Shown piece by piece: positions 11,531-23,626 of a stretch of DNA of 40,761 bases (the first letter of the stretch is position 1; every line of letters begins with the position of its first letter). Origin of the DNA: Parcubacteria group bacterium (lineage in GTDB: Bacteria > Patescibacteriota > Minisyncoccia > Moranbacterales > UBA2206); assembly GCA_041659585.1 (NCBI GenBank), contig JBAZXY010000002.1:1-40761 (forward strand), in the 5' to 3' direction. Both the position numbers and the translations under genes were made by a program. A model generated the notes under the pieces. That model made no database searches and was not told where the DNA came from. It worked only from the letters and a program-made list of their open reading frames with translations.

Positions 11531-13060
11531 ATGGAAAAATTAAAAAGAACTATTTTCTTTTGGACATTGGTGCTAATTTTTATTATCGTCGCCCCAACAG
11601 TGGTGATGTATGCCAAGGGCTACCGCTTCGATTTCAGTCGAGGGGTTTTTGTGCATAGCGGCACCATTTCCATCAAATCCAATCCGCAAGATATCCAGGT
11701 CAGCATCAATGGCCAAGTCGAAGACGCCAAGACACTCAACCGCATCAATAATTCCTATAACATCAGCGGCCTCTTGCCAAATAATTACGCCATCTCCGCC
11801 AGTGCCGAAGGCTATCAAACTTGGAGCAAAAAAACTGATGTGCACAGCGGGCTAGCCAGTGAATTTTGGAATGTGATTTTAACCAGAAACAACTATCCCC
11901 GCGCAGACTATGCCACAGAAGGTATTGAAAAATTTTTCATCTCTCCCAAGAGCAGTCTATTGATCTACACTAAAAATTCCCAGCAAAATTTGACCACGAC
12001 TATCTTCGACATCAAAAACAAAGCTCTTGTCAGCAGCTTCACTTTCACGGGCTGGAAACTCATCCCGGATACCCGCCGAGAAAATATTGAATGGTCACCG
12101 CAAGAAGACTACATCTCTGTGCCGGTGGAAAAACTATCTGAGGAATCCGTGCCGGCCAAACAAAAGATGAGCTCCCAGCAAGAAAGCGGACCGCAATATG
12201 CCTATTTTATTATCGACACTGCCAAGAAAACTTTTTTTAATCTCAATGAACTCCTGAAAAACAACGACATTAATTATGTACGGTGGGATCCCAGAGACAA
12301 GAACTATCTCTTCTATCTCAGTGGCGACGTTCTCTATCGGGCCAATATCAACAACATCAATGACCTGACTGCCATCGCTCAGGACATCTCCAGTTTTGAT
12401 CTCTCTAAAACCAACGTCTACTATTCGCAAATGCCTAACGAACTGGTATACAAAGCAGAATTCAATGGCCTAGGCAACCGTGTGCAACTGACCAGTGATT
12501 TCCCAGAAGACATCACCCGCAACTTCCGCCTCATCGCCTATGATGACAATCGCATCGCTTTTCTCACTCAAAACAAAACCTTATATATTTTCAACTCCGG
12601 AGAACTTGATACCTATTTCAAAAAACTAGGCACAGACATTGAAGGCATTCAATTTTCTGATGATGGGAAAAAACTCCTCTATTGGACCAAAAATCAAATC
12701 TCCACCTACTATCTGCGCAACTGGAATGTCGAGCCCTTGCGCACCGAAAACACCACTGAAGACATCGCTCGCTATGCTGACGAGATCAAAAATGTCCAAT
12801 GGTTCAAGGATTATGAGCATGTCATTTTCTCACTGGGCAACCAAATGAAATTCATTGAATTGGATCCGCGTGATCACCGCAATTGCATGGACCTGCCACA
12901 AACCACCCTCGCCAATCCTATTGCCGGATACAATCTCTATTTGGAAAAATTATTTTTCATCGACACGAATAATACTACTAACAATCTCTATTCTATTAAT
13001 TTTCCAGAAACTCTGCCTTTCCTAGGAGTCTTCAATCAGAACCAACCCGCTACGCAATAA
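11531..13060 (+). CDS. PEGA-domain protein with C-terminal beta-propeller-like region
   Basis: N-terminal TM, then GTISIKSNPQDIQVSINGQ...NNYAISASAEGYQTWSKKTDV (PEGA pattern). The C-terminal part is repetitive and rich in W, Y, D and N. Confidence 0.65.
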   Translation: MEKLKRTIFFWTLVLIFIIVAPTVVMYAKGYRFDFSRGVFVHSGTISIKSNPQDIQVSINGQVEDAKTLNRINNSYNISGLLPNNYAISASAEGYQTWSKKTDVHSGLASEFWNVILTRNNYPRADYATEGIEKFFISPKSSLLIYTKNSQQNLTTTIFDIKNKALVSSFTFTGWKLIPDTRRENIEWSPQEDYISVPVEKLSEESVPAKQKMSSQQESGPQYAYFIIDTAKKTFFNLNELLKNNDINYVRWDPRDKNYLFYLSGDVLYRANINNINDLTAIAQDISSFDLSKTNVYYSQMPNELVYKAEFNGLGNRVQLTSDFPEDITRNFRLIAYDDNRIAFLTQNKTLYIFNSGELDTYFKKLGTDIEGIQFSDDGKKLLYWTKNQISTYYLRNWNVEPLRTENTTEDIARYADEIKNVQWFKDYEHVIFSLGNQMKFIELDPRDHRNCMDLPQTTLANPIAGYNLYLEKLFFIDTNNTTNNLYSINFPETLPFLGVFNQNQPATQ

Positions 13061-13076
13061 TAGCGACGCACCATCT

Positions 13077-13108
13077 TAAAAAGAACTTTTTCTAACGTTC
13101 TTTTTTTT
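13077..13108 (+). terminator. weak intrinsic terminator after the PEGA gene
   Basis: aaaaagaac / gttcttttt stem with a 10-nt loop, followed by a T-run. Confidence 0.4.
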
Positions 13109-13124
13109 AATTTTCCCACATAAA

Positions 13125-13152
13125 AGGCGCTTCGATTTTAATCGAAGCGCCT
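13125..13152 (-). terminator. intrinsic terminator after the GNAT gene
   Basis: 12-bp perfect stem aggcgcttcgat / atcgaagcgcct with a 4-nt loop, followed on the minus strand by TTTTAT. Confidence 0.6.
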
Positions 13153-13160
13153 GGTGAAAA

Positions 13161-13706
13161 TTAGCTGTTCTGCAGTTCCCACTCTCGCTTCAGAAGACCA
13201 AATATGACGATATCGTGATATTGACCTCTCTTATAGGCCCCTTCGCGTACCAAACCATCTTGCTTGAAGCCAATTTTGCGATGCATGCCAATGCTCTTTT
13301 CATTGAAGGCATAGGCGCGAGAAGATATGCGATGCATATTCAATTCATCGAATCCATAGGCAATAATCAATTTGGCCGCCTCAGTGCCATAACCATGACT
13401 CCAATAATCCTTCTCCCCGATAGCGATACCGAATTCGGCATCCCTGTTTTTCCAATCAATGCCATGCAGACCGCAAGTGCCGATAGGAATGCTTTTTTCG
13501 CTATCCATCACTTCGATGACAAAAACAATATCTGTGCTTTTACGCGTGGTGCTCAGCCCTTCTAACCATTTTTCTTCCCCGATTTCTGTCATCGGCAGAT
13601 ACATGGAAAGATTACAAATAATTTCAGTGTCGTTAAACCACCGCAACATATTTGCCAAATAAGCTTTTGTTACGACTCTCAGTATGATTCTTTCACCTTG
13701 TAACAT
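13161..13706 (-). CDS. GNAT family N-acetyltransferase (RimJ/RimL-like)
   Basis: ...GTCGLHGIDWKNRDAEFGIAIGEKDYWSHGYGTEAAKLIIAYGFDELNMHRI... is the GNAT acetyl-CoA fold pattern. I start it at the ATG at 13706 (M26 of the track ORF) because AGGGAGGA lies 5 nt upstream. Confidence 0.85.
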   Translation of the reverse strand: MLQGERIILRVVTKAYLANMLRWFNDTEIICNLSMYLPMTEIGEEKWLEGLSTTRKSTDIVFVIEVMDSEKSIPIGTCGLHGIDWKNRDAEFGIAIGEKDYWSHGYGTEAAKLIIAYGFDELNMHRISSRAYAFNEKSIGMHRKIGFKQDGLVREGAYKRGQYHDIVIFGLLKREWELQNS

Positions 13707-14081
13707 AATATCCTCCCTACACCTAACTGTGGACGATTCCCTTTCCTCGAATGAGGCCTTCAAAAAGACTGCTTGTTTCAATTATTAAAGTACTTTTCCA
13801 GATATAAAAAAGCTCGGCTTTTTATCTAGCCGAGATGGTTTTTTGTCGCATGCAGTTTTATCCTGAGATTATGGCATCTCGCATCTAAAACTATTTAAAT
13901 TCACAAAAACCGCCTGGGCCAGATAAGCAACCATTAAGGTTGCTTTGCAATCGAAGATCACTGGAGAATTAGCTCCAGCTTGCCTTAGATTCATTCGGTT
14001 TTCGTGATATCTTTGCATATTTTTTACTTTACATCTACTTTTTATCATAAACTCCTATTTTTGTCAAATTTACGAACAACC

Positions 14082-14203
14082 AAAAAAGCCCTCACGGACT
14101 TTTTTGATTGGGCTATTTTGGAAAATTAAATCATTAAAAAGTTTAACCTTAATTTTAAATTCAAAATTAGAAATTAGAAATTCCCGGCCCTATTCCCACT
14201 TCG
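14082..14203. repeat. 122-bp direct repeat, copy 1 (partner at 16699-16820; 121/122 identical)
   Basis: Read directly: aaaaaagccctcacggacttttttgattgggctattttGgaaaatt...gaaattcccggccctattcccacttcg. The only mismatch is G/A. It carries a relic of the kinase 3' end (LLTKWE-stop at 14190-14210). Confidence 0.9.
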
Positions 14204-14224
14204 TCAATAGTTACTCAAAAGCTA

Positions 14225-14926
14225 TTACCTGTCTTTTTTGATAATAATCACTGCTTCAGCTAATAGATTTTGGAAGTCTTTATTTTTTGACCAAACATCT
14301 CTAAGCGCCTCCCTCAACTCAGCGTGCTCGGGATAGCCATTGTCTTGAGATAATATAATACCCCCAAATTCCGGTTCATTCAACAGAAACGTCAACGCCT
14401 CCTTTAGGTCCTCGATTTGCTCATCTGCCAATCCATTCTTTTCTAAATAATCCCGATAATAATACAAAAATTGCAGATGCATGATTTCATGGCAGATTGT
14501 AGTAATGGAAAAAGGGACACTATGCCACATTGAAACCATAAACCAACCCTCTTTTTCATCATAGGGACACATGAGTCCGGTAGTGAAATAACAATCAAAT
14601 CCTTCTTGAAAAATAGGTTTCTGCATAATGTCCGCCAAAATTTCAAAATATTTTTCTTCCACCAATCCCCAAGACTCCTCCAGAGCTCGCATCTCAGCAC
14701 GCATCACCCGATTCTTATATTCTGTTTTCACATTTTTTTTGATATATTCCGCTACAATTGCTTGCGCCTGAGCAAAGCCGGCTTTTTCGATTTGCACTAG
14801 CAGCTCATCCGGGATTTGCGCAATTTGATCGCGCCAATTCAAGCCCCAGACATTTCTGTCTTTGGCAATCACTACCCAGCTCCACGCATCTTTTTCTAAA
14901 TTGTAATCAAATGTAACTTTAACCAT
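14225..14926 (-). CDS. HExxH-motif protein, putative zinc metallopeptidase (candidate RiPP leader peptidase)
   Basis: 233 aa, soluble, with ...ITTICHEIMHLQF... (HExxH). It is the last gene inside the repeat-bounded cassette. No closer family recognised. Confidence 0.6.
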   Translation of the reverse strand: MVKVTFDYNLEKDAWSWVVIAKDRNVWGLNWRDQIAQIPDELLVQIEKAGFAQAQAIVAEYIKKNVKTEYKNRVMRAEMRALEESWGLVEEKYFEILADIMQKPIFQEGFDCYFTTGLMCPYDEKEGWFMVSMWHSVPFSITTICHEIMHLQFLYYYRDYLEKNGLADEQIEDLKEALTFLLNEPEFGGIILSQDNGYPEHAELREALRDVWSKNKDFQNLLAEAVIIIKKDR

Positions 14927-14932
14927 AAACTA

Positions 14933-14961
14933 ATTATACTAAAAAAATAGGGAGTAATCAA
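14933..14961 (-). promoter_or_regulatory. sigma70-like promoter (TTGATT-17-TATAAT) ending 6 nt before the ATG, giving a possible leaderless mRNA
   Basis: On the minus strand TTGATT is at 14961-14956 and TATAAT at 14938-14933. Only tagttt separates the -10 from the ATG at 14926, and there is no SD. Confidence 0.4.
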
Positions 14962-14981
14962 ATATAAACTTGATTACTCCC
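14950..14981 (-). terminator. intrinsic terminator/attenuator between the rSAM and HExxH genes
   Basis: 12-bp stem gggagtaatcaa / ttgattactccc with an 8-nt loop, followed on the minus strand by TATTTTTTT. Confidence 0.55.
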
Positions 14982-14991
14982 CTATTAAAAA

Positions 14992-16365
14992 CTACTTCGT
15001 CTGCTCATACAGATCCCAAATTAACCAATTCAGGGTTTCTTTCGCATGAATGCAAAAATTATCATCAATATCCCAGATACTACCGTTATTCATTTCCGCA
15101 TTATGAGGACATCCACCACCGCAAATAGTCAACGCCTCACAATTATGACATTTAGGCATATTGATAGGAGAACGCTTACTCCATTCTTTCCAGAACGGAT
15201 GTTCAAATGGATCAAAATCAGGATCAGGATTAACAAAAAACTCTTCTGTGCCACTATAAGCATGACACACTCCAATTTTTCCATTCGGGAGAATCACTAC
15301 CTGCTTACCGCATCCACAACAATCACGATCATAAATAGTTCCATCCACAAAAGCTTTCACCTTGCGCATCATTCGCGCTTCGTAGATACCGCGTTCTCGT
15401 GCAATCTCAAAGCACTCAATCATTGCATGCGCCACTCTATTAGGATAGCCTGAGTCATTGATTTTATATTGATGACTATTCAACAATGGATTGAAACCAA
15501 CATTACTTATTCCAACATCATCCAGAAACCAATTAAAAATCTGTGGCAATTTATCTACATTGGCCTCACTGACAGTGCAGGATATACATGCTTTGGCACC
15601 AACCTCCTTCAGAATAGATATTCCTCGCACAACATCATCGAATGTTCCGCTACTTTTTCCAAGCCAAACTCGGCAAGCATCATGAACTGATTGATATCCA
15701 TCCAATGAAACATCCACTTCTATATTATGTTTTGCACAAAACGAAGCGATTTCATGGTTAATCAAAGAACCATTTGTATTAACATTCATCGTCAGATTTT
15801 GTGGCAATGCTCCAGACCGCTTAAGAGCAGCCACCTCCTCAACTGCAACAAAAAAGATGTCAGCATTAATAAATGGCTCACCTCCGTAAAAAACAATGCT
15901 TGGCTCATATGGATGAAAATCGGTGTATTCGCAAGCCTTTTTTAAAAAACCTGCAAATTGCCTCACCGAGGCTATGGCCATATCCTTCGTCATATTTATT
16001 GCTTTTTCCTTTGGACCATCATAAGAGCCCTCAAAAAAACAATAAGTACAACCAAAGTTGCAGTTGTTCGTTAAGAGCAGATAGAGCGTGTCGATAGAGG
16101 GATGTTGAAGAATCGATTCTTGCAGTGATTTAAGACTCTCATCCTCATTCATATCAATCGCTACTACGAGATTTTTTTGAACCAAGTATTTTATCGCTTC
16201 ATTATCAACATCGACGGAAGATGCTTGAGATAAGTAATTACGCATATCAATAAGATTTGCGCTAGTGACAAAGACTACTTCCCGGGACAAAGCATGAAAA
16301 ATTGCAGTAATCCCATTTTTTTCGAAAAAGTGTACAAATTTAGAAAACTTAAGAGCATTCTTCAT
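14992..16365 (-). CDS. radical SAM / SPASM-domain peptide maturase with about 95-aa N-terminal (RRE-like) extension
   Basis: CNFGCTYC (CxxxCxxC) lies at about residue 100. The C-terminal auxiliary-cluster motifs are CCGCGKQVVILPNGKIGVCH and CHNCEALTICGGGCPHNA (SPASM). The ATG at 16365 has AAAGGAGAG 5 nt upstream; the track ORF begins at a GTG at 16386. Confidence 0.9.
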   Translation of the reverse strand: MKNALKFSKFVHFFEKNGITAIFHALSREVVFVTSANLIDMRNYLSQASSVDVDNEAIKYLVQKNLVVAIDMNEDESLKSLQESILQHPSIDTLYLLLTNNCNFGCTYCFFEGSYDGPKEKAINMTKDMAIASVRQFAGFLKKACEYTDFHPYEPSIVFYGGEPFINADIFFVAVEEVAALKRSGALPQNLTMNVNTNGSLINHEIASFCAKHNIEVDVSLDGYQSVHDACRVWLGKSSGTFDDVVRGISILKEVGAKACISCTVSEANVDKLPQIFNWFLDDVGISNVGFNPLLNSHQYKINDSGYPNRVAHAMIECFEIARERGIYEARMMRKVKAFVDGTIYDRDCCGCGKQVVILPNGKIGVCHAYSGTEEFFVNPDPDFDPFEHPFWKEWSKRSPINMPKCHNCEALTICGGGCPHNAEMNNGSIWDIDDNFCIHAKETLNWLIWDLYEQTK

Positions 16366-16397
16366 TTTATCTCTCCTTTTAAACACCTAAAGAATAA

Positions 16398-16425
16398 GGG
16401 AATGCACATTATTCTGTGCATTCCC
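16398..16425 (-). terminator. stem-loop (attenuator-type terminator) between precursor and maturase
   Basis: Perfect 11-bp stem gggaatgcaca / tgtgcattccc with a 6-nt loop. On the minus strand it is followed by TTATTCTTT. Confidence 0.6.
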
Positions 16426-16445
16426 TTCGGCTTACCTAGAAAATC

Positions 16446-16598
16446 CTAGGTTGTTACTTTGATCACACCAGTCTTACTGCAGCCATTGCCACCGCCAGAA
16501 CAAGATGAACAAGCTCCACATTTGAGATTCATGGCAACCTTTGATTCAAGCTTGCCAAGAACTTTCCGATAATGTTCGTCCCTCGGGATAATCAACAT
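16446..16598 (-). CDS. 50-aa Cys-rich putative RiPP precursor peptide (below ORF-track size cutoff)
   Basis: Hand translation gives MLIIPRDEHYRKVLGKLESKVAMNLKCGACSSCSGGGNGCSKTGVIKVTT. GGAGGTGG lies 6 nt upstream of the ATG. It sits directly upstream of the rSAM/SPASM gene on the same strand and has its own promoter. Confidence 0.65.
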   Translation of the reverse strand: MLIIPRDEHYRKVLGKLESKVAMNLKCGACSSCSGGGNGCSKTGVIKVTT

Positions 16599-16665
16599 TC
16601 TTTCCACCTCCATTTAATTCTTAATGAACATCCAATAACTAACACCATTGATAGCTATTATCCGC

Positions 16666-16694
16666 ATATTAGCAATACGCCATCACATTGTCAA
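16666..16694 (-). promoter_or_regulatory. sigma70-like promoter (TTGACA-17-TAATAT) for the precursor/maturase transcript
   Basis: On the minus strand TTGACA is at 16694-16689, followed by an exact 17-nt spacer and TAATAT at 16671-16666. Confidence 0.55.
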
Positions 16695-16698
16695 ATAA

Positions 16699-16820
16699 AA
16701 AAAAGCCCTCACGGACTTTTTTGATTGGGCTATTTTAGAAAATTAAATCATTAAAAAGTTTAACCTTAATTTTAAATTCAAAATTAGAAATTAGAAATTC
16801 CCGGCCCTATTCCCACTTCG
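16699..16820. repeat. 122-bp direct repeat, copy 2 (overlaps the last 14 nt of the histidine kinase CDS)
   Basis: Near-identical to 14082-14203. It contains the kinase stop codon and its AT-rich trailer. Confidence 0.9.
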
Positions 16821-18519
16821 CTAACAGTTCTGGCGATTGGACCAGGGGGATTTCAATGATGAAGCGCGAACCATGATCTTGACCATCGGATTCCGCCCAG
16901 ATTTTGCCGCCATTGGACTCAATCATGTTGCGACCCACATAGAGTCCCAGGCCGGTGCCGCCGGTGTTGAGGCGGGAAATGTCTTTGCCACGTGAAAATT
17001 TAGCAAACAAATAGGGCAATTCTGTAGCCGGCACGCCGATGCCGGTGTCCGCCACGGTGATACGAGCTGCGTCACCCACCTGTTGCAAGCGCAATGTCAC
17101 GCCGCCATGGCCATGCAAAGTATATTTGAGCGCGTTGTCTACCAAATTAGAGATCACTTCGCGCACTTTCACCCCATCAATAGTCACTTCCGGCACAGGA
17201 GTTTCCGGCGGCGTATATTCCAAATATAGGTCATTATCCTTGGCTCGCAAGGCAAAAGTATCCAACACTTCTCCACAAATTTTTTCCAAATCCCATTGGT
17301 CGAATTTGAATTCCATGCGGCCAGATTCGATGCGGGAGATGTTGAGCAAATCCTCCACCAAAGTGATCAAGCGTTCGTTGCTGATATAGATCTTGTTCAG
17401 CACTTCCACGTGCTTTTCTCCCACCGGGCCATAGGAACCTTCCAAGAGCAGAGACAAGAAGCCCTTGATGGCAGTGAGGGGGGTGCGCAACTGATGGGAA
17501 GCGATGGAGATAAACTCTGATTTGGCATTGTCCAAGGTGCGCAACTGATCATTGGACTGCGCCAAGCGGTCGGCCATCATCTGCAATTCATCCTTTCTCT
17601 CAACCAATTCCGCGCTGGAAATTTCCAAAGCCTCGCGCAACGCCACTTCCTTTTTCACCGAACGAATCAAATTCCAGCCCATGATGGCAGTCAAAAGCAA
17701 GGTGATGCCGGTCAATACTTGATTAGTGGTGGTTCGCACGAAAGCGAACATCGAAGCGATGAGAATGACCTGCGCCACAATCAAAGCCTGCGTTCCAATA
17801 AGCTTAATATTGAACGCTTTAAATTTAACTATCATATATGCCAATATGCCAATAAAAACAGGCATTCCAAATAATCCATATTGAGTCATCTTCCAATCAA
17901 GAGTGATACTGCCGAATACATTTGTCCAAGAAAAAGAAAGTAAAAAAAATAAAATTCCAGCACCAATCAATAAAATTTGTTTTTTGAAATATATATCTCT
18001 TTCTTTTATGTATTTATAAATTATATAGGAAAGTAATACTATTGCAATAAACATCTCTACTAAATAACCTAATTTAAAAATTGAACCCTCGATAGACTCA
18101 CAACTATCAATATTAAATATTGGGATATTAATATTTGTATATGTTAAACCTAAAAAAATAGAAACTATCATTGCATACAATATATTTAAAAAAACACTTG
18201 CCTTATTCTTATTTATATAAGCATATGCAAAATAAAAACTGCTAGTAAATATGATTATTTCTAACATAGGAAAAAAAGACCACACAGCTGTTATTATTGC
18301 AGAGTTGTTACTTGTCCAAGTGATTAAGCTAAACAATGTCCATATAAAAATACTAAAGGAAATAATAAAGAATAGTATACTAGTTAAACTCCTATTCCTT
18401 GATATAATAAAAAATCCAAAAAACAAAGACACTATTGCTGTAGGGATATGCGAATAGTAAATCATATCAGGAGCAGTAACGCAGCCACCTTGAACATTTG
18501 TTATTAAATTATATAACAT
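16807..18519 (-). CDS. sensor histidine kinase with N-terminal 7TM sensor domain (HisKA + HATPase_c)
   Basis: H-box FISIASHQLRTPLTAIKG, N-box VISNLVDNALKY, G-boxes DTGIGV and GTGLGLYVGRNMIESNGGKIWAES. There are about 7 N-terminal TM helices. No response regulator is present in the window. Confidence 0.9.
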   Translation of the reverse strand: MLYNLITNVQGGCVTAPDMIYYSHIPTAIVSLFFGFFIISRNRSLTSILFFIISFSIFIWTLFSLITWTSNNSAIITAVWSFFPMLEIIIFTSSFYFAYAYINKNKASVFLNILYAMIVSIFLGLTYTNINIPIFNIDSCESIEGSIFKLGYLVEMFIAIVLLSYIIYKYIKERDIYFKKQILLIGAGILFFLLSFSWTNVFGSITLDWKMTQYGLFGMPVFIGILAYMIVKFKAFNIKLIGTQALIVAQVILIASMFAFVRTTTNQVLTGITLLLTAIMGWNLIRSVKKEVALREALEISSAELVERKDELQMMADRLAQSNDQLRTLDNAKSEFISIASHQLRTPLTAIKGFLSLLLEGSYGPVGEKHVEVLNKIYISNERLITLVEDLLNISRIESGRMEFKFDQWDLEKICGEVLDTFALRAKDNDLYLEYTPPETPVPEVTIDGVKVREVISNLVDNALKYTLHGHGGVTLRLQQVGDAARITVADTGIGVPATELPYLFAKFSRGKDISRLNTGGTGLGLYVGRNMIESNGGKIWAESDGQDHGSRFIIEIPLVQSPELLAKWE

Positions 18520-18535
18520 AATTTTATTATTATTT

Positions 18536-19075
18536 TTATATATTTATCTTTTTTTGTAGATAATGTTGGAAATATCCATTATATTTTTTTTGTAATTGTG
18601 GTATTTTCCAATCATTTTCAGTAATTACGCCTCTGCAATTATCTTTTTTACATAAACATTTCATCTCATATGCTTTCACCCCTCTTGATTTATGCAGAAC
18701 CATAGCGTAATCAAAGACCACCTCTTCTCCTGCTTCAATATTCCGCATAGCAACCAAAAAAATTTGGCCACCAAATCCAGCATTAGGATCACAACTATGA
18801 TTAAAAAAATCCGTATCAAATATCTCCTCTTCCTTAATTATCCCTAAAACAAAATTTTCATGTATTTGGAGAGCGTAATCATTCATGTATTCAGGCAAAT
18901 CATCTTCCTCTCTCACATCCATCACATATCCACCGAATATTGCCAACAATTCATCTTTTTTTATATCAGAAAGAGCAAAAACCCCCTTACCACATTCAGC
19001 AATATCCCTCACCTCTAAACTAGAGTTAATCCAGGAAAAATCTTTTTTATTATTATTTTGGGAAACTTTTTTCAT
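18536..19075 (-). CDS. SET-domain protein (putative protein lysine methyltransferase)
   Basis: FFNHSCDPNAGF (NHSC motif), EEVVFDYA, and the post-SET-like CLCKKDNCRG. It lies 16 nt upstream of the kinase start. Confidence 0.85.
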   Translation of the reverse strand: MKKVSQNNNKKDFSWINSSLEVRDIAECGKGVFALSDIKKDELLAIFGGYVMDVREEDDLPEYMNDYALQIHENFVLGIIKEEEIFDTDFFNHSCDPNAGFGGQIFLVAMRNIEAGEEVVFDYAMVLHKSRGVKAYEMKCLCKKDNCRGVITENDWKIPQLQKKYNGYFQHYLQKKINI

Positions 19076-20044: not shown

Positions 20045-20112
20045 ATCAAAATGATCCTATATCACTTTGATTTACTATTCTAGCACAAAAAACACTTTTT
20101 GTCAAACAAAAA
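20045..20112. repeat. 68-bp duplicated promoter/leader module, copy A (66/68 identical to 23559-23626)
   Basis: Read directly: atcaaaatgatcctatatcactttgatttactattctagcacaaaaaacactttttgtcaaacaaaaa. Confidence 0.9.
20077..20105 (-). promoter_or_regulatory. sigma70 promoter TTGACA-17-TAGAAT (copy A) driving the 19220-19993 gene
   Basis: On the minus strand TTGACA is at 20105-20100, followed by a 17-nt spacer and TAGAAT at 20082-20077. Confidence 0.6.
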
Positions 20113-23558: not shown

Positions 23559-23626
23559 ATCAAAATAATCCTATATCACTTTGATTTTCTATTCTAGCAC
23601 AAAAAACACTTTTTGTCAAACAAAAA
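23559..23626. repeat. 68-bp duplicated promoter/leader module, copy B
   Basis: 66/68 identical to 20045-20112. Confidence 0.9.
23591..23619 (-). promoter_or_regulatory. sigma70 promoter TTGACA-17-TAGAAT (copy B) driving the polyamine operon
   Basis: On the minus strand TTGACA is at 23619-23614, followed by a 17-nt spacer and TAGAAT at 23596-23591. Confidence 0.6.

Follow-up and report, generated by a model that had tools for sequence, protein, structure and literature searches.

The window analysed here, a 40,761-nt stretch of a Parcubacteria contig, contains a compact unit of three genes on the minus strand, which encode a 50-aa precursor peptide (16446–16598), a radical SAM (rSAM) maturase (14992–16365) and an HExxH protein (14225–14926). 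The three are co-oriented, as a sequence-only reading of this DNA had proposed, and neither an exporter, whose absence that reading had also remarked upon, nor an evident immunity gene is found inside the three-gene unit. All 17 distinct full loci carry the peptide, the maturase and the HExxH protein side by side, and the same set is present in L110 and L113–L115. The precursor is kept next to the maturase across loci, which bears out the earlier view of a RiPP-type cassette with an adjoining Cys-rich peptide.

The precursor gene (50 codons plus the stop) starts with the ATG at 16598, 6 nt downstream of the Shine-Dalgarno (SD) sequence GGAGGTG (16605–16611). Its promoter (16694–16666, minus strand) consists of TTGACA, a 17-nt spacer with a TG element and TAATAT, matches the consensus at 10 of 12 positions and begins directly after copy B of a direct repeat described below; the promoter and strong SD that had been read from the sequence are thus both in place. 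The product, MLIIPRDEHYRKVLGKLESKVAMNLKCGACSSCSGGGNGCSKTGVIKVTT, can be divided into a leader, MLIIPRDEHYRKVLGKLESKVAMNLK, and a core, CGACSSCSGGGNGCSKTGVIKVTT. Wherever enough sequence is available upstream of a close maturase homologue (about 19 distinct loci), it contains a homologous peptide ORF, and the divergence of these ORFs from the window peptide gene is 0.4–1.1 at synonymous and 0.05–0.24 at non-synonymous sites, a pN/pS of about 0.1–0.2 that points to purifying selection. The conservation across loci and the pN/pS ratio rule out a chance ORF and argue that the peptide gene is real. The leaders follow the pattern …YRKxLGxLESKxAMNLK, while the cores carry four conserved cysteines, C-G-[AP]-C-x2,3-C-[TSV]-[GS]-x3-8-C, and these cysteines are the only strictly conserved core residues among the homologous peptides. 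Directly 3' of the peptide stop lies a 13-bp GC-rich hairpin without a strong T-run (16396–16427, minus strand), and an equivalent hairpin of different sequence follows the peptide gene in all 17 distinct loci that were folded; it is probably an attenuator or a transcript-stabilising stem-loop. Scanning the peptides against Pfam with E values as high as 10 gave nothing relevant, the copy used seemingly being without the FibroRuminTarg model. FibroRuminTarg was flagged faintly for the L003 peptide.

The maturase (457 aa) has an RRE–radical SAM–SPASM layout according to profile, alignment and model evidence. Its start is the ATG at 16365, which is served by the SD sequence AAGGAG (16373–16378), and a GTG at 16386 was set aside in its favour. 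The radical SAM motif CNFGCTYC is encoded at 16039–16062, its CxxxCxxC spacing is kept in 30 homologues and the Pfam Radical_SAM model matches at 4.9e-14. The SPASM signature comprises G-x4-C, then C-x2-C-x5-C-x3-C (15109–15150; CHNCEALTICGGGC) and a final cysteine; all of its cysteines are invariant in the 30 homologues, and this match to the seven-Cys signature for two auxiliary clusters upholds the original assignment as an rSAM/SPASM enzyme. The Pfam scan of the window maturase did not report the SPASM model itself, and in Foldseek the fold matches CteB and anSME across the SPASM region. In the AlphaFold2 model (pLDDT 92.4) residues 11–84 form three strands, two helices, a short strand and a further helix, mostly at pLDDT above 75, and the N-terminal 85 or so residues are accordingly predicted to be a beta3-alpha3 RRE-like domain. 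The best sequence matches in the PDB are TigE (8vpo) and CteB (5wgg), both of which serve as RRE reference structures (PMC12710340), and the alignments extend into their N-terminal domains. Full-length structural alignments to these two RRE-bearing enzymes cover 458–476 columns, with a TM score of 0.74 over 473 columns for CteB. Sequence and structure comparisons therefore both favour the RRE region that had been suspected at the N-terminus.

The third gene encodes a 233-aa protein of a zincin-like family without annotation. Its HEIMH motif (14477–14491) lies in the context CHEIMHLQF, and H146, E147, H150 and the putative third zinc ligand E176 are the only residues invariant among 33 sequences with identities down to 22%. 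An HExxH motif with a downstream glutamate as third zinc ligand is the gluzincin signature, and the likeness to gluzincins (M4 thermolysin/vibriolysin, M1, M78 ImmA/IrrE) extends from the invariant glutamate 26 residues downstream to the predicted order of strand, strand, active-site helix and Glu helix. Unlike gluzincins, the protein has an N-terminal helical domain of its own of about 100 residues. It has no family in Pfam, NCBIfam, PHROG or PADLOC; searches against PDB profiles gave only sub-threshold matches, the weak fold matches all being zinc peptidases, and the best Foldseek E values were 0.44 (PDB) and 0.25 (BFVD) with TM scores of at most 0.39. The family comprises about 600 clusters at 50% identity, and since so large a family has no assigned function, its characterisation would define something new.

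The HExxH gene is set apart from the maturase gene by its transcription signals. An intrinsic terminator with a 15-bp stem and a T-run lies between the two (14949–14982, minus strand), and a hairpin with a T-run occupies this junction in 21 of 21 distinct loci folded, with differing stem sequences. A promoter-like site, TTGATT-17-TATAAT (14933–14961, minus strand), places the -10 box 6 nt before the ATG; together with the absence of an SD sequence this suggests that the HExxH mRNA is probably leaderless. Most of the other loci among the 21 likewise have a -10-like box just upstream of the HExxH ATG.

Among named families the nearest relative of the maturase is FibroRumin: the TIGR04136 profile matches with 275.8 bits (E 6.5e-82) over positions 1–455 of 458, below its curated cut-off of 400 bits. 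The next profiles are PapB with 148 bits and then QhpD and anSME with about 116–118 bits. The homologous peptides of L001, L002 and L003 align to the precursor profile TIGR04135 across leader and core with 20–25 bits (E 1.6e-5 to 3.8e-4; cut-off 45 bits), while the window peptide itself has no match even at E up to 10. The sequence-only reading had recognised no named family; a nearest one can now be named, with both partners below its cut-offs. As in FibroRumin, a Cys-rich precursor adjoins the maturase in the window and at every close homologue locus. The window clade differs in its Patescibacteria hosts and in its single precursor with a four-Cys core, and its constant HExxH partner may be a further difference. 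The locus is thus probably a RiPP cassette of a Patescibacteria-wide clade whose nearest named relative is the FibroRumin system.

Other families resemble the cassette in more limited ways. The SCIFF/ranthipeptide systems (CteA-CteB, PapA-PapB) share the RRE–rSAM–SPASM layout, a Cys-rich precursor and a compact operon, CteB is the top structural match of the window maturase, and a signalling role has been proposed for them as well. However, the maturase stays below the cut-offs of both SCIFF TIGR03974 (99.9 bits against 425) and PapB NF047865 (147.8 bits against 340), and the window core has four conserved cysteines rather than six and lacks Cys-x3-Asp repeats. With RumMC, the closest of the sactisynthase models, the maturase reaches 84 bits where the cut-off is 720. 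Of the solved structures, TigE (PDB 8VPO) comes closest in sequence (E 2.6e-21), and its three domains are laid out alike, but it is only about 21% identical to the window maturase, acts on valine in repeat-motif peptides and needs no cysteine, its product being cyclopropylglycine and not thioethers (PMC10878394). The anaerobic sulfatase maturase anSME has an rSAM–SPASM core of the same fold (TM about 0.78 relative to the target), but it lacks the N-terminal domain, aligns over only 383–391 columns and modifies a folded protein instead of an adjoining small peptide; its profile TIGR03942 scores 115.9 bits, short of the cut-off of 349. On the scores and the extra N-terminal domain, the maturase is neither an anSME nor QhpD or some other cofactor enzyme, in keeping with the separation from anSME that the sequence-only reading had drawn, and the annotated neighbours include no recognisable sulfatase gene.

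Several roles can be considered for the HExxH protein. Among the close homologues the maturase never occurs without it, and its gene always follows immediately downstream. One reading takes the three genes as a complete, self-contained pathway in which cleavage after …MNLK falls to the HExxH protein as dedicated leader peptidase. This strict adjacency speaks for it, as do the parallel drop of maturase and HExxH identities to the window copies across the trio loci, the invariant HExxH…E site and the fusion of two HExxH family members to a transglutaminase-like protease-fold domain. However, the terminator (21 of 21 distinct loci) and separate promoter that precede the HExxH gene do not fit such a pathway, nor does the distribution of the family: 29 of 57 distinct HExxH loci have no rSAM gene nearby and eight have unrelated ones. 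The HExxH phylogeny does not follow peptide type either. The HExxH proteins of the window and of L006 are 71% identical, yet the L006 peptide has an unrelated leader, and solo genes are among the nearest tree neighbours of the window protein. Separate transcription, solo homologues and the lack of co-diversification with peptide type render a dedicated leader peptidase, along the lines that had been suggested from the sequence, doubtful; we regard the self-contained pathway as somewhat unlikely. Our tentative preference, held at rather less than even confidence, is that the protein may be a broad-specificity peptide-processing peptidase common to several cassettes, which could for example remove leaders without being tailored to the one encoded here.

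The asymmetric dependence, with every maturase accompanied by HExxH but many HExxH genes lacking a maturase, would also suit an 'orphan immunity' function, a self-protection peptidase that degrades Cys-rich peptides, that producers need and that non-producers often keep or acquire on its own. The independent transcription signals, the apparently intact HExxH genes beside a broken or truncated maturase in L015 and L040, and the solo HExxH units that are likewise bracketed by repeats (L034, L041) are all consistent with such a role. Against this, the HExxH protein lacks both a signal peptide and a membrane segment, which would require a toxin that acts in the cytoplasm; HExxH proteins of this type also stand next to unrelated peptides, and the family has no known antimicrobial activity. 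Self-protection is therefore an unlikely explanation.

The cassette most likely works as follows. The strong promoter of the precursor gene, as read from the sequence, drives transcription of the 50-aa peptide, and the hairpin after its stop probably lets only some transcripts continue into the maturase gene, a partial read-through that would leave the precursor in excess of the enzyme. On the strength of model and homology, the maturase would bind the conserved leader through its predicted RRE-like domain and modify the core by means of the radical SAM cluster and a pair of auxiliary clusters in SPASM. If CteB, PapB and the sactisynthases are a guide, the modification would most likely be the formation of Cys-derived thioether cross-links. 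The third gene, as a separate transcription unit, encodes a cytoplasmic zinc-peptidase-like protein with the HExxH…E signature. A different chemistry is conceivable, either a non-thioether modification (C–C cross-link, cyclopropyl, epimerisation) or the making of a redox or metal cofactor from the peptide (PQQ- or mycofactocin-like), the cysteines serving as metal ligands or in disulfides. TigE as best PDB sequence match is compatible with this, read directly the C-x2-C-x2-C…C spacing resembles an iron-sulfur ligand motif, and the set of peptide, rSAM enzyme and peptidase parallels cofactor pathways. But no core residues other than the cysteines are strictly conserved, the closest named families are maturases of Cys-rich RiPPs, and the patchy, strain-variable occurrence of the family is unlike that of an essential cofactor; this alternative to thioether formation appears improbable.

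The upstream neighbour of the cassette is a sensor histidine kinase gene (16807–18519, minus strand) whose 570-aa product has a multi-TM N-terminus and HisKA and HATPase_c domains (Pfam). Its 3' end forms part of a 131-nt direct repeat that brackets the 2.6-kb unit, a feature beyond the earlier description. Copy B (16699–16829) takes in the final 22 nt of the kinase gene with its stop codon, followed by an AT-rich spacer and the hairpin of the kinase terminator (16699–16722). Copy A (14082–14212), 97% identical to copy B, starts 13 nt after the HExxH stop and holds a vestigial kinase end (…KWE and a stop) with a second copy of the terminator. The repeat does not belong to a dispersed family, since the window has only two copies, and an assembly artefact is unlikely because the copies differ (84–98% identity) and the pattern recurs in independent assemblies. 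The three genes and repeat A lie in a larger strain-variable slot (13047–16699) between two convergent conserved genes, the kinase and a 509-aa gene at 11531–13060; in the window this slot also contains a GNAT gene (13161–13781, minus strand). The sibling contigs L108 and L109 encode an identical kinase protein and are 98.4% identical to the window up to 16700 and 96.6–99.6% from 13046 onward, while the same slot carries another insert of 2.4 kb with a different radical SAM cassette. This sequence context marks the entire unit as accessory DNA, inserted where strains differ from one another at the sensor-kinase 3' end. Integration at a tRNA gene can be dismissed, as the window contains none, and the 3.65-kb slot has no integrase-sized ORF, all large ORFs there being accounted for.

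The neighbourhood invites the idea that the modified peptide is a strain-specific signal for the adjacent multi-TM kinase, with the slot holding interchangeable signal cassettes. Of the 57 distinct HExxH loci, 15 have a related kinase, several-fold above chance per 12-kb window by a rough, uncomputed estimate; three different rSAM/peptide cassettes directly follow this kinase family (window, L006, L108); in L111 three rSAM cassettes are followed by a HisKA_7TM kinase; and SCIFF ranthipeptides have been linked to quorum sensing, according to a passage of PMC8326336 that cites Chen et al. (2020). This support is circumstantial and the signal idea very improbable, because most trio loci have no kinase nearby (it is found in 5 of 17), its orientation varies and is convergent in L003, a low-sensitivity tblastn search of the 40.7-kb window with Spo0F and CheY turned up no receiver domain and hence no cognate response regulator of the kind that accompanies the peptide genes in Agr- or LanRK-type circuits, and a kinase 3' end acting as insertion hot spot can explain the co-location. 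Equally slim are the prospects of a wider scheme in which the kinase-gene 3' end would be an exchange slot for rSAM peptide cassettes, with target duplication, the strain-specific peptides would be the kinase signals and the HExxH protein a shared processing or quenching enzyme; if true, it would give these episymbiotic bacteria with reduced genomes a system for kin recognition or quorum sensing.

Reports generally credit Patescibacteria with few biosynthetic clusters or none (PMC11613949, as an example), and the sequence-only reading had likewise held modules of this kind to be unusual in CPR genomes. The homologues of the cassette tell otherwise: they number in the hundreds and nearly all are found in Patescibacteria assemblies, where they go by no more specific name than 'SPASM domain-containing protein', 'radical SAM protein' or 'hypothetical protein'. 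A search of the available literature (ranthipeptide, radical SAM, RiPP) returned nothing describing FibroRumin or such a system in Patescibacteria. The cassette family is thus widespread in Patescibacteria and apparently unannotated, and due to this generic naming standard mining may undercount the peptide chemistry of the phylum. With just three small genes the cassette is a tractable system, enough to work out what chemistry the uncharacterised FibroRumin-type maturases perform. Patescibacteria are thought to depend on DNA uptake, and the repeat-bracketed, strain-variable slot offers a concrete handle on the movement of accessory genes in these organisms.

The best NCBIfam match of the 457-aa maturase is TIGR04136, the FibroRumin system radical SAM (rSAM) peptide maturase, which it matches over its full length at 275.8 bits (curated cut-off 400 bits); lower matches are to PapB (148 bits), QhpD (117.5 bits) and anSME (116 bits), followed by CefB and others. 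The precursor peptides of three comparison loci fetched from databases (L001, L003 and L002) match TIGR04135, 'FibroRumin family radical SAM-modified Cys-rich RiPP', at E values of 1.6e-5 to 3.8e-4 and 20-25 bits (cut-off 45 bits), consistent with a faint precomputed match of the L003 peptide to Pfam FibroRuminTarg; the window peptide gave no match to the TIGR04135 profile. Since the scores of maturase and peptide fall below the cut-offs, the cassette is a sub-threshold FibroRumin relative that lies outside the family by NCBI's criteria. Our literature search found no paper that mentions FibroRumin, and we are not aware of any biochemical study of the family.

Of the solved structures, TigE (8vpo, E 2.6e-21) and CteB (5wgg, E 1.6e-16) match the maturase sequence best, and both alignments begin at around residue 32-47, within the N-terminal domain. 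The AlphaFold model (input 30 homologues; pLDDT 92.4, pTM 0.90) predicts residues 11-84 to form three strands and then helices, which is the topology of a RiPP recognition element (RRE). CteB (TM 0.69-0.74 over 458-473 columns) and TigE (476 columns) lead the Foldseek matches, whereas the alignment to anSME covers just 383-391 columns. The radical-SAM cysteines and seven SPASM cysteines are invariant in 30 maturase homologues. The sequence-only reading is therefore not refuted on this point: the enzyme does not fall with anSME or cofactor-maturation enzymes, and its N-terminus is predicted to have the RRE fold.

All three cassette genes lie on the minus strand, as do the expression signals described here. 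For the precursor gene, ATG 16598 is the most likely start, rather than 16613; a GGAGGTG Shine-Dalgarno sequence is located 6 nt upstream of it, and the resulting N-terminus agrees with those of the homologues (MLLIPK…). A consensus scan places its promoter (TTGACA-17(TG)-TAATAT) at 16694-16666 and a 13-bp hairpin immediately 3' of the peptide stop at 16427-16396; the maturase starts at ATG 16365 with AAGGAG ahead of it, and its database copy is likewise 457 aa long. Among the loci gathered via maturase and HExxH homologues in genomes and metagenomes, a small ORF homologous to the precursor gene lies ~60-100 nt upstream of every maturase that is at least 56% identical and has sufficient sequence ahead of it. 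The leader is conserved (M-L-L-I-P-K-x-E-x-Y-R-K-V-L-G-x-L-E-S-K-x-A-M-N-L-K), and the core of these peptides opens with an invariant C-G-A-C-x-S-C and is variable thereafter, with a long form containing five cysteines (…TGGGGGQACKCTGVGRVIKKP), a short form containing four (…[TV]GSPQxC[KR]) and the form of the window, CSGGGNGCSKTGVIKVTT, common only to the window and its closest relative L113 (…CSGGGNGCSRTGVV…). The peptides of a clade of ~40%-identity maturases carry KCGPCxxxCTSGxRC[KG]. Over 33 alignable codons in 17 distinct peptide sequences, the mean values are 0.72 for pS and 0.155 for pN. On comparative grounds the peptide gene is genuine.

The 233-aa HExxH protein has 192 close homologues, all annotated as hypothetical and without Pfam domains, and identity is 59-73% among the best 120 of the 192. 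The family comprises 598 clusters at the 50% clustering level (E <=0.001), nearly all of them single-domain proteins of ~225-240 aa; two long members contain a transglutaminase-like domain. In members down to 22% identity the sole invariant residues are H146, E147, H150 and E176, a gluzincin signature, and T115, G197, Y198, R205 and F218 are nearly invariant. The AF2 model (pLDDT 90.7) predicts an N-terminal helical domain of ~100 residues, two strands, the HExxH helix and the E176 helix. A Foldseek search with this model gave no significant match, the weak top matches being vibriolysin and LasB (M4), IrrE/PprI (M78), M1 aminopeptidases and SprT-like proteins.

Between the maturase and HExxH genes the consensus scan identifies a terminator with a 15-bp stem and a T-run (14982-14949), overlapped by a promoter-like site, TTGATT-17-TATAAT (within 14927-14961). 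Such a terminator is present in 21/21 distinct loci examined, with differing stem sequences. In the window, the -10 box ends 6 nt ahead of the HExxH ATG, which has no Shine-Dalgarno sequence, and this suggests a leaderless HExxH mRNA. Most of the 21 distinct loci have a TATAAT-like box ~6-10 nt before the HExxH ATG, right after the terminator.

The context of the HExxH gene was surveyed in 57 distinct loci that have 2 kb or more of upstream sequence: 17 contain the full trio, three a broken or truncated maturase, eight another rSAM gene within 4 kb, and 29 none of these. Different rSAM cassettes that carry an HExxH gene include L006 (59-aa peptide, 334-aa rSAM protein and GNAT), L025 (peptide CSYCDCQCDCGYCPCSVCHYE), L111 and, in L019, the second cassette. 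A neighbour-joining tree of the HExxH proteins does not separate trio, other-rSAM and solo contexts, and places the window protein nearest to those of L006 (with another rSAM), L009 (a solo gene) and L010 (with GNAT only). Our reading is that the maturase depends on an adjoining HExxH gene, while the HExxH gene is autonomous and not tuned to one leader. Maturase remnants lie upstream of the HExxH gene in L015 (5376-5927; the C-terminal 175 aa) and L040 (2539-3914; split into two ORFs), and partial copies in L057 and L022; of the adjoining HExxH genes, those of L015 and L040 are intact, whereas the L057 gene is interrupted and the L022 gene frameshifted. The two intact cases suggest that peptide and maturase can be lost with the HExxH gene retained. 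Two or three different rSAM units stand in tandem in the Patescibacteria contigs L111 (1-9455), L019 (3500-12050) and L114/L115, where Cys-rich peptide ORFs adjoin some of the units and each unit is followed by a gene for a protein of 212-241 aa, one in L111 and one in L019 being detectable divergent HExxH homologues. The L111 array is followed by a HisKA_7TM kinase, and the L019 units are separated by repeats of 77-158 nt with a hairpin.

Upstream of the cassette lies a multi-TM sensor histidine kinase gene (16807-18519, minus strand), and a 131-nt direct repeat, 97% identical (14082-14212 and 16699-16829), brackets the cassette. The repeat consists of the final 22 nt of the kinase gene and the kinase terminator region, and the window contains two copies only. 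An identical kinase is encoded on sibling-strain contigs of two other assemblies, L108 (ENA ERZ27315058) and L109 (JGI 3300040971), which match the window at 98.4% identity from 26772 (L108) or 26462 (L109) to 16700, and at 96.6-99.6% from 13046 to 12073. In both, 13047-16699 is replaced by a different 2.4-kb insert (L108 10326-12740; L109 9771-12185), which encodes, on the opposite strand, a rSAM/SPASM protein of 335 aa with a 37-aa ORF ending …NSECSICQS (MFVENYPTLAADIKALEALGFLTTDATANSECSICQS) downstream of it, and further contains a methyltransferase and 65 nt of the kinase 3' end (88% identical). GNAT, peptide, maturase and HExxH genes like those of the window are all absent from it. Given the near-identical flanks and the different insert, 13047-16699 is a slot whose content varies between strains, flanked by two conserved genes in convergent orientation.

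Repeats of neighbouring gene ends, 42-300 nt long and 77-98% identical, bracket HExxH-terminated units in L003, L006, L010, L013, L019, L026, L030, L034, L040, L041, L062, L100 and L104; overall, bracketing was found in 15/48 distinct loci as opposed to 3.5% of the control positions taken within those loci. Their source is often the 3' end of a sensor-kinase gene. The pattern is not confined to the HExxH gene, as it extends to the L108 insert, a DUF4135 and GNAT block in L003 and a polyamine-gene block in the window. DUF4135 is a domain type found in class II lanthipeptide synthetases; in L003 (3401-4972) the DUF4135 protein and GNAT make up a block of their own, 2.6 kb long and repeat-bracketed, that directly precedes the trio, suggesting that several peptide-modification modules accumulate at one site. 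The window's second direct repeat (68 nt, 97% identical; 20045-20112 and 23559-23626) contains a minus-strand TTGACA-17-TAGAAT promoter and brackets a 3.5-kb block encoding a GARS-like ATP-grasp protein, spermidine synthase and an AdoMet-decarboxylase/spermidine-synthase fusion, an arrangement likewise seen in L108 and L109. We read repeat bracketing as a mark that insertion generally leaves in these genomes. A candidate source of the repeats would be homology-facilitated illegitimate recombination during DNA uptake, for which there is published evidence from other bacteria with natural transformation (PMC8116780, PMC3410848); repeat-bracketed insertions may also arise by a single crossover of the Campbell type or by a site-specific process.

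Besides its HisKA and HATPase_c domains the kinase matches HisKA_7TM weakly, and a low-sensitivity test detected no receiver domain within the 40,761-nt window. Related kinases are present in 15/57 distinct HExxH loci, and the order SET–kinase–(variable)–HExxH recurs in L010, L041 and, without the SET gene, L030. In the window the small SET-domain gene (18536-19075) directly precedes the kinase gene, a SET–kinase pair conserved in L010 and L041, and L114 has a SET gene near its cassette; SET-domain proteins are unusual partners of histidine kinases. Co-location with the kinase is compatible with a functional link and with an insertion hot spot alike. SCIFF ranthipeptides have been linked to quorum sensing (PMC8326336), so the idea that the modified peptide might serve as a signal for the kinase is retained, at low probability.

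Where homologues of the three cassette proteins carry a taxon name, they belong to Moranbacteria, Berkelbacteria, Buchananbacteria, Nealsonbacteria, Pacebacteria, 'Saccharibacteria' and unclassified Patescibacteria MAGs, two of them from bins that are probably mislabelled. The cassette is thus common in CPR genomes, where the sequence-only reading had considered natural-product modules unusual. The cassette itself is real, and the sequence-only interpretation of it was mostly sound. Its cross-link chemistry and biological function, like the part played by the HExxH protein, are inferred; what the locus carries is an rSAM/SPASM RiPP cassette that is FibroRumin-like yet divergent, has a new partner of zincin-like type and forms exchangeable accessory DNA.
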